The notes under the pieces were generated by a model. The model had not been told where the DNA came from, made no database searches, and was given only the letters and a program-made list of their open reading frames with translations. From positions 2,220 to 66,219 of the forward strand of contig JBGQIB010000003.1 in NCBI GenBank assembly GCA_041498295.1: 64,000 nt of DNA, given 5' to 3'. The translations under genes and the position numbers were made by a program. This document shows positions 1 to 64,000 of the stretch, in pieces. The stretch's first letter is position 1; each line of letters opens with the position of its first letter. The stretch comes from a bacterium. GTDB taxonomy: Bacteria > Myxococcota_A > UBA9160 > SZUA-336.

Positions 1-2
1 CG

Positions 3-155
3 GGCGCGAAAGTGACTGGCTCGGTTTCGAAGAAGACCGACTTCCTGCTCGCGGGCGAGAACGCCGGCTCGAAGCTCGAGAAGGCGCGCGAGCTCGAGGT
101 GCACGTGATCGACGAGGCCGAGGCCGCGCGCCTGGCGGCGGGTGAAGCGCTCTAG
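3..155 (+). CDS. ligA: NAD-dependent DNA ligase, C-terminal BRCT fragment (5' end outside window)
   Basis: Frame 3 reads [50 protein letters not shown], then TAG at 153-155. This is the typical BRCT tail of LigA. Confidence 0.7.
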
Positions 156-1018
156 TCGGCGCCGTCCGCGGAGCCGGCGCGCGCCAGCACGCGGGCGTAC
201 GCGTCGCGCCGCGAGAGACCGAAGCGCGCCGCGAGCTCGCGCGCGGCGTCGCGCGTGGAGCGCCCGTCGGCCAGGAGGCGCGCGAGCTCCGCGTCGACCT
301 CGCCGGCGGGCGGTGAGTCACTCGCCGCCGACTCACTCGGGCCTTCGACCACGATCGTCAGCTCGCCGCGCAAGTCGTCGAGCTCGAGCTCGCCGAGCAC
401 GCCGCGCAGGATCGTCTCGTGGCGCTTGGTGAGCTCGCGCGCGAGGGCGACGCGGCGCGGACCGAGGGCTGCGCGCAGCTCGACGAGTGTCTTCGCGGCG
501 CGCTTCGGCGCTTCGTAGAGCACGAGCGCGCCCGGGAACGCGGCGAGCGCGGCGAGCTCGCGCGCCCGCTCCGCACCCTTGCGCGGCAGGAAGCCGGCGA
601 ACGCGAACGGCCGAGTCGCGAAGCCGCTGGCTACGAGCGCGGCGAGCAGCGCCGACGGCCCGGGCAGCGGCACGACCGCGGCGCCCGCGTCGAGCGCGGC
701 GCGCACGAAGCGCTCGCCAGGATCCGAGATCAGCGGCGTCCCAGCGTCGGAGACCAGCGCGAGCGCCGCACCGCGCGCGAGCCGCGCCAAGAGCTCCGGC
801 ACGCGCCGCGCCTCGTTGTGCGCGTGCAGCGAGACACGCGACGTCGAGATCTCGAAGCGCTGGCACAGCACGGCCGTGTGGCGGGTGTCTTCGCAGGCGA
901 TCAGCTCGACCTCGCGCAGCACGCGCAGCGCGCGCGGCGACAGATCCTCGAGGTTCCCGATCGGCGTCGCGACGACGTAGACGGTTCCCCGCCCGTCGCC
1001 TAATGTGCCCTCGCTCAT
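152..1018 (-). CDS. rsmI: 16S rRNA (cytidine1402-2'-O)-methyltransferase RsmI
   Basis: 288-aa ORF with [16 protein letters not shown] and CEDTRHT motifs of the tetrapyrrole-methylase-fold RsmI family. Confidence 0.9.
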
Positions 1019-1048
1019 CGCGCCTCACCCCAGGCTCGAGGCAGCGAC

Positions 1049-60886: not shown

Positions 60887-63112
60887 GTGCGCGGCTCGGT
60901 CGAGATTCTGCGCGACGAGCTGGGCATCCCGCACGTCCGCGCCGAGTCACTCGGCGGCGCGTTCTTCGGCCAGGGCTTTACGTGCGCGCAGGATCGCCTC
61001 TGGCAGATGGAGCACGATCGGCGGCGCGCGAGCGGCCGCTGGGCGGAGGTCGTCGGTCCGATCGCCGTCGGACGCGACGCGTTTCTGCGTCGCATGGGGC
61101 TCGCGCGCTCGGCCGTTCGCGACCTGGCCGCGCTGCGCGCCGACACGCGCGAGATGTTCGACGCCTACGCGGCGGGGGTGAACGCGTTTCTCGCCAGCGG
61201 CGCGCCGCTCCCGGCCGAGTACGCGCTCACGGGTATCTCGCCGGAGCCGTGGGAGGCGTGGCACTGCATCGCGGTCTACAAAATCCGCCACGCGTTCATG
61301 GGCCCGCTGTATCGCAAGCTCTGGCGCGGCGCGCTGCTGCGCGAGCACGGGCCGGAGCTTCTGGCGGCGATCTACGCGGGCGCGGCCGAGACACTCTCGG
61401 TGCCGCCGGGCGAGGATCACCGCGAGCCGGCGCTGCTCCCGGCCGAGCTGGCGACGGGCGTCGAAGCGCTCGGCGCCCTGGAGCCGGGCGACGGCGCCAG
61501 CAATCACTGGGCGCTCGCGGGGAGTCGCACCGCGTCCGGGAAGCCGCTCGTCGCGGGCGATCCGCACCGCCCGCTCGAGCTCCCGAACGTGTACTGGCAG
61601 AACCACGTGCGCTGCGTGGGCTTCGACGCGATCGGCCTCTCGTTCGCGGGCGTGCCGGGGTTCCCGCACTTCGGACACAACGCGCAGGTCGCCTGGTGCA
61701 TCACGCACGGCATGGCCGACGATCAGGATCTCTTCGTCGAGCGACTCGGCGCGCGCGAGCTGGCGCTGGCGGAGCGGCGAACCGAGACGGTGTCGGTGCG
61801 CGGCGCCGCGCCGGCCGAAGTCGAGATACTCACCACGGCGCGCGGGCCCGTGGTTCTGGGCGGCACGCACGTCGGCCTCGGAATCGCCCTGCGCTGGACG
61901 ACGCTCGTGGAGCCCGACTCGAGCTTCGACTGCTTCCTGCCGATGCTCGCCGCCACGAGCGCGGCCAAGCTCGAGGATGCGATGCGCGCCTGGGTCACTC
62001 CGTGCAACAACTTGATCAGCGCAGACGTCGCGGGCTCGATCCGGTATCGCTTCCGCGGGCGCGTGCCCGTGCGCGATCCGTCGAATCGCTGGAGCCCCGT
62101 TCCGGGTGAGTCGAGCGCGCACGCCTGGCGCGGCTACGTGCCGTTCGACGTGCTGCCCGCGGTCGCCGATCCGCCGAGCGGCATGCTCGCGGCGGCGAAC
62201 AACCGGCCCGCGGGCGCGGCCGCGCCGTATCTCGGCGTCGACTTCTCGGGAGCGAGCCGCGTGCGGCGGATCTTAGCGCGGCTCGAGTCACTCCACGAGG
62301 CGACGGTGGCGGACATGGCGTCGATCCACGCGGACGATCTCTCGCTCGTAGCGCCGCTGTTCGTGCGCGCGCTCGACGGCGTCGAGCCCGCGAGCGAGCG
62401 GGCGCGCGAGGCACTCGCGCTCCTCCGTGCTTGGGACGCCCACCTCGCCGGCGACTCCGTCGGCGCAGCGCTGTACGTCGCGTTCCGCGAGCAGCTCACT
62501 TTTCTCGCGGGCGGTGCGCTCGGACTCACGGGCCCGATTTTGGGCGTCCTGGGCGAAGCGGCGGGCGCGCCCGAGCGCTTGGCGATGGTCTGGAACGCGA
62601 TTCCTCCGCTTCTGTCGGCGCGCTTCGCGCCGCGCGAGGCGCACACGGCGTTCGATTGGAAGGCGCTCTGCGCACAGGCGTTCGAGCGCGCGCTCGCGTT
62701 TCTCGAAGCGCGCCTCGGCCCGAAGCTCTCGGAGTGGCGCTTCGCGCGCGTGCACCGCACGTTCGCATGGCATCCCTCCGCGATCGACCTGGAGGCGGCG
62801 CGTCGCCTGCGCCCGCCGCCATCGGTGCCAATGGGCGGCGATGGTGACACCGTTCTGTGTGGCGCGACCGTGCCCGGCTTCAGTCTGCGCGCCACCGCCG
62901 TATCCGTCGCGCGCTACGTCTTCGACCTCTCCGATTGGGAGCGCTCGGGCTGGGTCGTGCCGCACGGCGTCTCGGGCGATCCCGCGAGCCCCCACTACAC
63001 CGACCAGCTGCTCGCGTGGGCGGAGCTGCGCCTCCTGCCCATGCGGTACGACTGGCGCGGGATCGAGGCCGCCGCGAGCTCGCGTGTGACGCTCGCGCCG
63101 CCGGCGCGCTGA
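60887..63112 (+). CDS. penicillin-acylase-family Ntn hydrolase (no recognisable signal peptide)
   Basis: DELGIPHV, AQDRLWQM, GASNHWA (Ser nucleophile context) and DPH motifs. GTG start 1 nt after the upstream stop. Confidence 0.85.
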   Translation: MRGSVEILRDELGIPHVRAESLGGAFFGQGFTCAQDRLWQMEHDRRRASGRWAEVVGPIAVGRDAFLRRMGLARSAVRDLAALRADTREMFDAYAAGVNAFLASGAPLPAEYALTGISPEPWEAWHCIAVYKIRHAFMGPLYRKLWRGALLREHGPELLAAIYAGAAETLSVPPGEDHREPALLPAELATGVEALGALEPGDGASNHWALAGSRTASGKPLVAGDPHRPLELPNVYWQNHVRCVGFDAIGLSFAGVPGFPHFGHNAQVAWCITHGMADDQDLFVERLGARELALAERRTETVSVRGAAPAEVEILTTARGPVVLGGTHVGLGIALRWTTLVEPDSSFDCFLPMLAATSAAKLEDAMRAWVTPCNNLISADVAGSIRYRFRGRVPVRDPSNRWSPVPGESSAHAWRGYVPFDVLPAVADPPSGMLAAANNRPAGAAAPYLGVDFSGASRVRRILARLESLHEATVADMASIHADDLSLVAPLFVRALDGVEPASERAREALALLRAWDAHLAGDSVGAALYVAFREQLTFLAGGALGLTGPILGVLGEAAGAPERLAMVWNAIPPLLSARFAPREAHTAFDWKALCAQAFERALAFLEARLGPKLSEWRFARVHRTFAWHPSAIDLEAARRLRPPPSVPMGGDGDTVLCGATVPGFSLRATAVSVARYVFDLSDWERSGWVVPHGVSGDPASPHYTDQLLAWAELRLLPMRYDWRGIEAAASSRVTLAPPAR

Positions 63113-63750
63113 TGCGGCTGCGGCGTTCGTTCTTCGCGCGCCCGTGTCTCGAGGTCGCCCCCGAGATGCTCGGGCTCCTACTGATTCACGAGCTCGCGAA
63201 CGGCGCGCGGCTCGTCGGCCGGATCGTCGAGGTCGAGGCCTATCTCGGCGACGGGGGCGACGCGGCATCGCACGCGCACCGCGGCCCGACCCTGCGCAGC
63301 CGCGTCATGTTCGGTCCGCCGGGACACTTTTATGTGTACTGCAGCATGGGCATTCACCGCTGCGCGAACCTGGTCTGCGAGAGCGAGGGTCGCGCCGCCG
63401 CGGTGCTGCTGCGCGCCGCCGAGCCGCTCGAGGGGGAGCCGCGGATGCGCGCGCTGCGCGGCGGCCGCGAGGGCCGGGAGCTCGCGAGCGGGCCAGGCAA
63501 GCTCGCGCAGGCGTTCGCGATCCAGCTCGCGCACGACGGCCGCGACGCGCTCCGCGGCGCCCTCCGTCTCGAGCGGGAGCCCGGCGCGCCCGCGCCCGCG
63601 ATCTCGGTCGGCCCGCGCATCGGTCTCAGCAAAGCCGCCGACCTTCCCTACCGGTTTTTCGTGCGCGGCAGTCCGCACGTGACGCGCGCGGCGCAGAATG
63701 GCCGCGCGCGCGAGCTCGCGCCTGAAGTCGCCCCTGGCACGTCGCGCTAA
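63112..63750 (+). CDS. mpg: DNA-3-methyladenine glycosylase (Mpg/AAG family)
   Basis: [11 protein letters not shown]...DAASHA...[16 protein letters not shown]...GPGKL is the canonical Mpg pattern. Confidence 0.85.
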
Positions 63751-63773
63751 CTGGCGCGTATCCTGCGTGCGCA

Positions 63774-64000
63774 GTGGCAGACCTGGGGAGCACCGAGGGC
63801 GCGCTCGAGCCGCGCGAGCGTTTCACGCGGGCGTGTCGCGGTGAGCCGGTCGATCGGCCGCCGGTGTGGCTCATGCGCCAAGCAGGGCGCTACCTGCCCG
63901 AGTACCGCGCGCTGCGCGAGAGGTCGAGCTTTCTCGCGATGTGCGACTCACCTGAGCTCGCCACCGAGATCTCGCTGCAGCCGCACCGCCGCTTCGGCAT
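63774..64000 (+). CDS. hemE: uroporphyrinogen decarboxylase, N-terminal part (3' end outside window)
   Basis: [21 protein letters not shown] signature. GTG start inferred. Confidence 0.9.

Follow-up and report, generated by a model that had tools for sequence, protein, structure and literature searches.

A HIP1-like interrupted palindrome, (G)AGTNACT(C), is over-represented in one clade of uncultured soil Myxococcota

Why does a short A/T-rich palindrome recur inside unrelated genes of a 70% G+C genome? The question is raised by a stretch of 64,000 nt (hereafter the window) from a metagenome-assembled genome (MAG) of an uncultured member of the Myxococcota. A preliminary description of the window, made from the letters alone, had reported repeated copies of GAGTSACTC (S, C or G; core AGTSACT) and had compared their behavior to that of the highly iterated palindrome HIP1 of cyanobacteria or of an uptake signal. 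The word is found here to be (G)AGTNACT(C), with a GTNAC nucleus, a free central base, and the 9-base palindromic consensus GAGTNACTC. Comparison among related lineages shows an apparent directional force towards this consensus, genome-wide in one clade and opposed by purifying selection. With slightly less than even confidence, we read the word as a HIP-type hyperabundant palindrome, that is, a recognition word that would have been written chromosome-wide in one Myxococcota clade by a DNA-level directional force acting through a dimeric enzyme.

The 12 GAGTSACTC copies that had been counted by eye were recovered by scan at exactly the starts given for them (Table 1), as were the three 11-mers CGAGTSACTCG (25619, 29567, and 60943) and the flanking variants CAGTSACTG (18282, 34167, and 36708), AAGTCACTT (36753), and TAGTCACTA (45643). 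The further cores, put at about 18, number 19, giving 31 AGTSACT in all. Dinucleotide-preserving shuffles (n = 100) contain the 9-mer 0.92 times on average (maximum 4) and the core 3.26 times (maximum 7). Under an order-2 Markov model, AGTCACT is the top over-represented 7-mer of the window (31 against 2.8 expected), and the order-3 expectation is 2.9. For a codon-aware null, genes were called from the frame signal of G+C at third codon positions and synonymous codons were then shuffled per gene in 1000 runs, which yielded 11.4 ± 1.6 cores (standard deviation; maximum 19) and a mean of 2.6 9-mers (maximum 6). This null is generous because the rare codons borne by the sites are retained and the ~12% of the window that was uncalled is left unshuffled. 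Thus, the excess reported in the preliminary description holds within the window against both Markov and codon-aware expectations.

The sites lie in unrelated genes and in all three codon phases, as had been stated, and on both strands; the phases given for those at 315, 1943, and 13789 were correct. The first A of the core occupies codon positions 1, 2, and 3 in an 8/8/8 split for the 24 sites that fall within genes called automatically, and in an 11/9/8 split over all coding sites, the latter including four hand-placed sites in the alr, thiE, and CoA-transferase genes identified later. By our own count, ~28 of 33 sites (31 S-centered and two W-centered; W, A or T) are coding. On the + strand the central base is C in 20 cores and G in 11, which is not significant by our own binomial estimate, and the strand bias for which a check had been proposed is therefore not seen. 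Two further cores lie in the 9.85 kb that L001 adds on the left side of the window.

The center of the word had been taken to be restricted to C or G, which does not hold, as AGTWACT is enriched equally strongly, with two copies against 0.26 expected in the window (at 30431 and 37961) and six against 0.17 in the related lineage L088. In a symmetrised logo, G at -4 and C at +4 occur in 56–67% of sites, T is disfavored at -4 (correspondingly A at +4), and nothing informative lies beyond ±4. The flanks are unconserved, and therefore a small mobile repeat is excluded. Each perfect site does contain one GANTC, as had been pointed out, but this is incidental because AGTWACT sites without GANTC are equally enriched.

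Several other identities were considered for the word. GANTC, the CcrM site, was ruled out as the determinant by the W-centered sites and by GAATC and GATTC, which are not raised overall. A repetitive extragenic palindrome or miniature inverted-repeat transposable element would have a conserved unit of at least 20 nt and lie mostly between genes, and the absence of information beyond ±4 and the largely coding placement do not match this. A polar word of the Chi or FtsK-orienting (KOPS) type would be asymmetric with replichore strand skew; palindromes cannot be polar, and the central-base skew is not significant. A general W-S-W-S-W-S-W compositional shift was ruled out by a rise limited to words near the motif, and GANNNAC as the motif by a rise limited to GAGTNAC and its close variants.

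The range of the word was examined around rsmI. The RsmI protein of the window is encoded identically on the NCBI MAG GCA_041494925.1 and on JGI and Logan contigs, and its nearest named homologs belong to 'Myxococcota bacterium' MAGs. Syntenic rsmI loci of ~15 related lineages were gathered from graded RsmI homolog look-ups and a metagenome scan with a neighboring 643-aa protein. AGTNACT occurs at 0.5 per kb in the window, 0.43 in L087, 0.55 in L093, 0.77 in L095, 0.68 in L103, 0.6–1.5 in L097/L105, 1.23 in L098, and 2.0 in L088 and L096, the last two being the same organism (ENA and JGI records, respectively, 100% identical across 19.6 kb). It is at 0 in L091, L101, L104, L090, and L092 and at 0.1 in L100 and L089. 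L087 is assembly GCA_009772335.1; L088/L096 are represented by ERZ27251178 k141_404477 and JGI Ga0187894_10000015, L095 by Ga0326726_10000631, and the motif-free L091, L089, and L101 by ERZ27255560 k141_1639361, ERZ25039603 contig_34018, and Ga0318515_10000006, respectively. Density therefore spans 0.43–2.0 per kb in the eight bearer lineages, against ~0.04 per kb in motif-free sisters and distant bacteria. The motif-free lineages, at ~78–80% nucleotide identity, are no further away than the bearers are from one another. When pooled, 172.7 kb of bearer DNA contains 136 AGTNACT and 54 9-mers, compared to five and one in 112.2 kb of related motif-free DNA, an 18-fold excess of the core and a 35-fold excess of the 9-mer over orthologous control DNA. 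Enrichment was found in none of 80 distant bacterial rsmI loci among the matches listed, two other Myxococcota loci included. The comparison with related genomes that had been proposed thus confines the excess to one clade with motif-free sister lineages, and the word excess is, on present sequences, probably a recent property of one uncultured soil Myxococcota clade and not phylum-wide.

The 643-aa protein (window 1487–3418, - strand) belongs to no Pfam or NCBIfam family, its sole match being a weak one to LeoBC (E = 6e-4); throughout the clade its gene is flanked by rplS and yraN/rsmI, and its specificity allows it to be used as a clade marker. In the motif-free lineage L089 (10853–12810), ligA has shrunk to a 185-aa HHH/BRCT fragment, after which comes an unrelated 418-aa open reading frame (ORF), through either rearrangement or misassembly. 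A scan of viral contigs with GAGTSACTCN{1,30}GAGTSACTC returned 70 matches, about the number expected by chance on our own estimate, and no high-GC contig at high density. Local AGTNACT clusters (2–3.5 per kb over 2–6 kb) occur on the IMG/VR contigs L170, L117, and L138, of moderate or low G+C and including a giant-virus MAG; these probably represent tandem repeats of local extent that have no connection with the Myxococcota signal.

The origin of individual sites was read from a MAFFT alignment of the syntenic 20 kb, in which L088 sites were compared with the majority of four relatives. At most L088 sites, the four relatives carry non-cognate sequence at the aligned position. At the 25 sites where the alignment is good and free of gaps, the core departs from the majority of relatives at 2.44 of its six positions on average (0.94 in background windows); 20 of the 25 needed at least two changes, the range being 1–5 core substitutions per gained site, with no indels. 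Some gains are synonymous and install very rare codons, such as GAG CTG CTC to GAG TTA CTC. Many others replace amino acids, including ENL to ESL (AAC to TCA), ELL to ESL, AAL to ESL, ELE to EVT, and SDL (TCG GAT CTG) to SDY (AGT GAC TAC). The preliminary description had proposed a pressure on DNA that forces rare codons; the rare codons (AGT, TCA, ACT, and TTA) are indeed imposed, but the effect is not limited to codons, and the pressure is strong enough to change amino acids as well. Intermediates are visible in the clade of the window, L093, L087, and L095, one position passing from GTCACC through GTCACT to AGTCACT, and the same positions were converted independently in L095 and L088. The visible intermediates and parallel conversions indicate that the process is stepwise, directional, and nucleated on ordinary GTSAC. 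Concerted conversion of multi-nucleotide patches is not needed, as intermediate states are seen across lineages. The sites are thus made in place by point substitution and are not copies of a mobile element.

Around the word lies a halo of near-cognates raised in motif-bearing genomes only. Words matching GAGTNAC on one strand across the window (1..64000) include 33 GACTCAC, 13 ACTCACT, 12 AGAGACT, and nine AGACACT. Over controls, GAGTNAC is enriched 9–16-fold for all four N, GAGANAC 1–7-fold, and GACTNAC 2–6-fold, the last resting on 1–110 copies per word. The 9-mer is the sequence that meets GAGTNAC on both strands, and its enrichment is about the product of the two. Single-substitution neighbors of the core are nearly all raised 2.7–17-fold, the exceptions being AGCNACT (0.86-fold) and AGGNACT (0.66-fold). 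GACTCAC (20 copies on the + strand and 13 on the - strand of the window; 28 in L088) is likewise gained de novo from unrelated sequence and occurs in several frames, for example as GAC TCA C (D-S) where E-S-L would yield a perfect site. This graded pattern fits a reader of weight-matrix-like affinity that would be working against amino-acid constraint. GACTCAC was considered as an unrelated second motif and judged to be a near-cognate of GAGTNAC; GACTNAC is raised for every N, so the gap in raw counts between C and G mirrors the baseline. A separate recognizer could also read GACTCAC.

Other words behave differently or similarly. GAGATAC/GTATCTC is also raised in motif-bearing genomes only (the window, L087, L088, L095, and L103; 41 copies against three in controls) and fits a GAGWNAC halo. 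TGAATCA/TGATTCA (22 against 0) and ATATGG/CCATAT (16 against 0) are likewise raised in bearers only. The words CGAGCTCG, GAGCTC, CTCGAG, and AGCTCGA reach z of 9–14 under an order-2 model and are equally high in motif-free relatives; this excess is probably a Glu-Leu/Leu-Glu codon-pair effect of high-GC coding DNA.

The distribution of sites also reflects constraint and history. The rpsP-rimM-trmD-rplS operon of eight lineages contains three sites against 16 expected (P = 9e-5). Between 45.7 and 60 kb, the window has one core against 9.2 expected (P = 0.001), and the earlier statement that no perfect 9-mer lies in 44.4–52 kb was confirmed. The 45.7–60 kb stretch contains an Rhs gene, adjoins an IS66 fragment, and is lower in G+C, from which a recent acquisition of the segment is putative. 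Between the window species and L087, seven of eight sites are kept, where positions of the same codon class predict 3.3–3.9, in a small sample to which parallel gain may contribute. Spacing is Poisson-like (coefficient of variation, CV, 1.13–1.15), and regular spacing was not found at the scale sampled (CV ~1.1).

How might such a word be written? The palindromic 3 + 1 + 3 shape with a free center points to a reader that would be a homodimeric, type II-like DNA enzyme, the likeliest candidate being a solitary DNA methyltransferase with a GTNAC-type core. M.MaeIII is an N6-methyladenine methyltransferase of GTNAC specificity (PMC10113651). Sites grow from a GTSAC nucleus through addition of A..T and then of G..C by stepwise point substitution, with each position acting as a term of a weight matrix, so that half-matches (GAGTNAC on one strand, GACTNAC, and GAGANAC) are raised too. 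Fixation could proceed through methylation-guided biased mismatch repair, as in Elhai's ratchet for HIP1 (PMC4390886), or through better uptake or recombination of tagged DNA, a molecular drive of the kind now proposed for HIP1. Permissive positions are converted independently in different lineages; the force loses to purifying selection in the ribosomal-protein operon and has not yet acted on the putatively recent segment. The system may have arisen at the base of the clade and would run fastest in the L088/L096 lineage.

The closest known systems are HIP1 (GCGATCGC) and the alternate HIPs of cyanobacteria, which occur at ~1 site per kb, each alongside a cognate methyltransferase (PMC4390886). 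The 1-off variants of HIP1 show enrichment and conservation as well (PMC5861425), transformation is raised when HIP1 is methylated (10.1101/2024.09.10.611283), and a correlation links the abundance of HIP1 to type IV secretion system proteins, which its authors connect with DNA uptake (10.64898/2026.06.24.733823). Both the cyanobacterial words and the present one are short palindromes at ~1 per kb and 15–300-fold over expectation, the excess over orthologous DNA here being 18-fold for the core and 35-fold for the 9-mer. Both are dispersed inside unrelated genes in all frames as well as between genes, with unconserved flanks here, and both arise by substitution and not by transposition, as the ungapped alignments show in situ. 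In both, one-mismatch variants are over-represented, density changes from one lineage to another, as does the word itself, which can give way to others, and an inner core matching a known methyltransferase specificity is joined by outer flanking bases. HIP1 sites are retained above neutral expectation, to which the seven of eight sites kept here, a small sample open to parallel gain, offer a suggestive parallel. The present word differs in its phylum, in being A/T-rich in a 70% G+C genome, and in its odd length and free central base. The cognate methyltransferase and the methylation are putative here, the recent onset is bracketed by motif-free sister lineages, and amino-acid-changing gains are documented. 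The likeness to HIP1 or to an uptake signal drawn in the preliminary description is supported.

Two methyltransferase-related systems offer partial parallels. Dcm/Vsr of Escherichia coli, under which CCWGG is enriched and CTWGG depleted, also involves a methyltransferase palindrome with a degenerate center that becomes over-represented through biased repair, and some transition neighbors here (AGCNACT and AGCNGCT) are not enriched or are depleted. However, in E. coli the enrichment stays below 2-fold, compared with 18–45-fold here, most neighbors here are enriched, and the direction here is towards A:T. MaeIII/M.MaeIII (GTNAC) and Tsp45I (GTSAC) share the GTNAC nucleus, but restriction sites are normally avoided whereas this word is enriched, and outside GTNAC it requires A..T, with a preference for G..C; a gene of this kind was not found in the window. 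No described motif had been matched to the word in the preliminary description. Literature searches recovered it solely in primers and in a single predicted Shewanella motif that is unrelated, and among the papers searched none describes it and none ties HIP1-like palindromes to the Myxococcota.

Several points weigh against a HIP-type word written through a dimeric enzyme. The 64-kb window encodes no DNA methyltransferase, restriction enzyme or endonuclease, Vsr- or MutH-like nuclease, or competence gene. PADLOC and NCBIfam scans of its hypothetical proteins gave nothing relevant, and its sole methyltransferase (42599–43606) is of class I and acts on small molecules. Under a strict all-or-none methylation ratchet, mainly outer-position variants should be enriched, and the broad, graded halo observed fits an affinity-type reader better. 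All data from outside the window come from one chromosomal neighborhood, the rsmI region. Lastly, the retention of sites has P ~0.02 by our own binomial estimate, which rests on 8–9 sites and could be inflated by parallel gain.

A more active process is possible, though we consider it doubtful. A recently acquired, methyltransferase-linked repair or recombination system might be converting near-cognates to GAGTNACTC at a rate sufficient to overwrite protein sequence, as a selfish, genome-wide, motif-writing drive caught soon after its origin.

It is unlikely, but deserves weight, that the word is a DNA uptake or recombination signal that involves no methylation, with a pilus or periplasmic receptor preferring GAGTNACTC and the word spreading by molecular drive like the DNA uptake sequence (DUS) of Neisseria or the uptake signal sequence (USS) of Pasteurellaceae. 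Like these, the word occurs at ~0.5–2 per kb (~1 per kb for DUS/USS) in perfect and mismatched copies, lies in coding DNA in all frames with effects on codons and peptides, and is scarce in DNA of putatively recent acquisition. Its changes of codons and amino acids at permissive positions, its deficit in the most constrained genes, its graded, weight-matrix-like attractor, and its stepwise parallel gains also suit an accumulation that, for DUS/USS, is explained by molecular drive. Type IV pili occur in Myxococcota, and natural transformation has been reported for Myxococcus xanthus; the literature search listed no paper showing this. For HIP1 itself, a role as an uptake signal has now been proposed (10.64898/2026.06.24.733823). 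However, known uptake signals are asymmetric words of 9–12 nt, often in inverted pairs near terminators, whereas the present word is one compact, strict palindrome whose free center is the signature of a dimeric enzyme; no inverted-pair arrangement at terminators was seen, and spacing is no more even than random.

The sites could instead be individually beneficial binding sites of an abundant nucleoid-associated or chromosome-organizing protein, as proposed for HIP1 (Xu et al., 2018, PMC5861425), which we judge improbable. A palindrome suits a dimeric binder, the retention of seven of eight sites is higher than expected in that small sample, and enriched near-cognates are what affinity-based selection predicts. 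However, a density running from ~0 to 2 per kb among lineages ~20% diverged is a poor match to a conserved architectural need, the gain from one extra site among thousands would have to exceed the cost of amino-acid replacements, and spacing is not regular at the sampled scale.

Very improbable is a mutational sink, in which a cytosine methyltransferase acting on AGCNGCT (GCNGC-type) and unrepaired deamination would yield AGTNACT with no advantage or drive. It would account for the depletion of AGCNGCT (0.71-fold) and GAGCNGCTC (0.58-fold) in motif genomes, for several gains that are a double transition from GAGCTGCTC to GAGTTACTC, and for the share of transitions among the 61 site-creating core changes (35, or 57%, against 36% in the background). 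However, the other 26 (43%) are transversions, such as C to A at position 1 and G to T at position 3, and many sites come from sequences unrelated to AGCNGCT. In addition, the single-transition intermediate AGCNACT is not enriched while transversion neighbors are, and GCNGC overall is unchanged (0.98-fold). The probability that there is no biology in the pattern is close to negligible, even though high-GC coding DNA has strong codon-pair biases and the Illumina adapter contains AGTCAC: codon-preserving shuffles fall short of the observed counts and relatives of the same G+C and codon usage are without the word, and adapter remnants, methylation-induced miscalls, or other assembly and base-calling artifacts are excluded because the sites are in frame, indel-free, in all phases, on both strands, and also between genes, and because they recur when the window species is read from separate NCBI, JGI, and Logan records, just as L088, whose MEGAHIT-style contig name probably marks a short-read assembly, agrees with the JGI record L096.

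Table 1. AGTNACT sites in the window (perfect, 9-mer match; core, 7-mer match), with the gene or interval in which each lies
Word	Position	Location (strand)	Reading or remark
Core AGTGACT (AAGTGACTG)	11..17	3' end of ORF 3–155 (+)	ligA by synteny with L001 only
Perfect GAGTCACTC	315..323	rsmI (-)	AGT GAC TCA (S-D-S)
Core AGTGACT	1497..1503	643-aa conserved hypothetical gene (-)	AAG TCA CTG
Perfect GAGTGACTC	1943..1951	643-aa hypothetical gene (-)	GAG TCA CTC (E-S-L)
Core AGTCACT	2957..2963	643-aa hypothetical gene (-)	GCA GTG ACT (A-V-T)
Core AGTGACT	10915..10921	alanine racemase gene 10298–11437 (-)	
Core AGTGACT	12586..12592	thiE 12445–13071 (+)	AGT GAC
Perfect GAGTCACTC	13789..13797	first htrA paralog (+)	GGA GTC ACT
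Core AGTCACT	15340..15346	galactokinase gene (-)	
Perfect GAGTCACTC	17981..17989	third htrA paralog (+)	
Core AGTGACT (CAGTGACTG)	18283..18289	third htrA paralog (+)	
Core AGTCACT	18721..18727	between htrA and TetR gene	small uncertain ORF
Core AGTCACT	19247..19253	TetR-family gene (-)	
Perfect GAGTCACTC (11-mer CGAGTCACTCG)	25620..25628	alpha/beta hydrolase gene (+)	GAG TCA CTC
Core AGTCACT	26798..26804	Ser/Thr kinase gene (+)	
Perfect GAGTCACTC	27771..27779	Ser/Thr kinase gene (+)	AGT CAC TCT
Core AGTCACT	28029..28035	junction of two convergent genes	
Perfect GAGTGACTC (11-mer)	29568..29576	626-aa hypothetical gene (-)	
W-centered core AGTAACT	30431..30437	626-aa hypothetical gene (-)	AGT TAC
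Core AGTCACT (CAGTCACTG)	34168..34174	hydrolase gene (+)	
Core AGTCACT (CAGTCACTG)	36709..36715	alpha/beta hydrolase gene (-)	
Core AGTCACT (AAGTCACTT)	36754..36760	alpha/beta hydrolase gene (-)	same gene as site at 36709
W-centered core AGTAACT	37961..37967	642-aa hypothetical gene (+)	GGA GTA ACT
Perfect GAGTCACTC	39858..39866	NodU-like carbamoyltransferase gene (+)	
Core AGTGACT	41377..41383	intergenic	17 nt past carbamoyltransferase stop
Core AGTGACT	43682..43688	intergenic	
Core AGTGACT	44369..44375	intergenic, IS66 fragment edge	T/T flanks
Core AGTCACT (TAGTCACTA)	45644..45650	beside Rhs gene	
Core AGTCACT	55440..55446	B12/radical-SAM gene (-)	sole site in 45.7–60 kb
Perfect GAGTCACTC	60007..60015	CoA-transferase III gene (+)	
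Perfect GAGTGACTC	60492..60500	CoA-transferase III gene (+)	
Perfect GAGTCACTC (11-mer)	60944..60952	penicillin amidase gene (+)	
Perfect GAGTCACTC	62285..62293	penicillin amidase gene (+)	

The genes of the window include housekeeping functions (the 3' end of ligA, assigned by synteny, rsmI, YraN, the rpsP operon, dciA, a Sua5/YrdC-family gene, purD, alr, and thiSGE), along with three htrA paralogs, galK, a Ser/Thr kinase, many hydrolases, an Rhs protein, an IS66 fragment, a radical-SAM enzyme, a phosphotriesterase, a CoA-transferase, and a penicillin amidase. The HtrA/DegP-family paralogs lie at 13068–14435, 15670–17055, and 17089–18564, with the galactokinase gene on the opposite strand between the first two. 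The IS66 transposase is truncated to its C-terminal part (44467–45099) and adjoins the 1472-aa Rhs protein (45674–50092; DUF6531 and RHS repeats), downstream of which small ORFs are followed by FlgD-Ig/PD40 genes (region 44467–52000). In L088 (1–2759), a DUF2997-DUF1257-hypothetical-AAA ATPase (522 aa) cluster lies upstream of TetR/P450 genes. The corresponding place in the window (6951–8174) holds a 202-aa AAA fragment, with a weak match to the IetA/IteA anti-phage ATPase, and a 203-aa ORF that has no family, both of which look like remnants of the L088 cluster.

HIP1 has been known for ~30 years, and its origin and function are still disputed, with a repair ratchet, a part in nucleoid architecture, and a signal for uptake or recombination among the proposals. 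Since HIP1 is ancient and nearly universal in cyanobacteria, it allows no clean comparison of before and after. The word described here appears to be an independent analog of HIP1 in another phylum, with a recent onset. Its lineages, ~20% diverged, span 0–2 sites per kb, and gains can be read directly from alignments, while sister lineages that lack the motif should allow the responsible gene to be found by presence and absence across complete MAGs. The question of how hyperabundant palindromes originate would thereby become experimentally tractable. The case is also a warning that, in uncultured lineages, a measurable part of protein divergence and of the use of rare codons can stem from drives acting on DNA.

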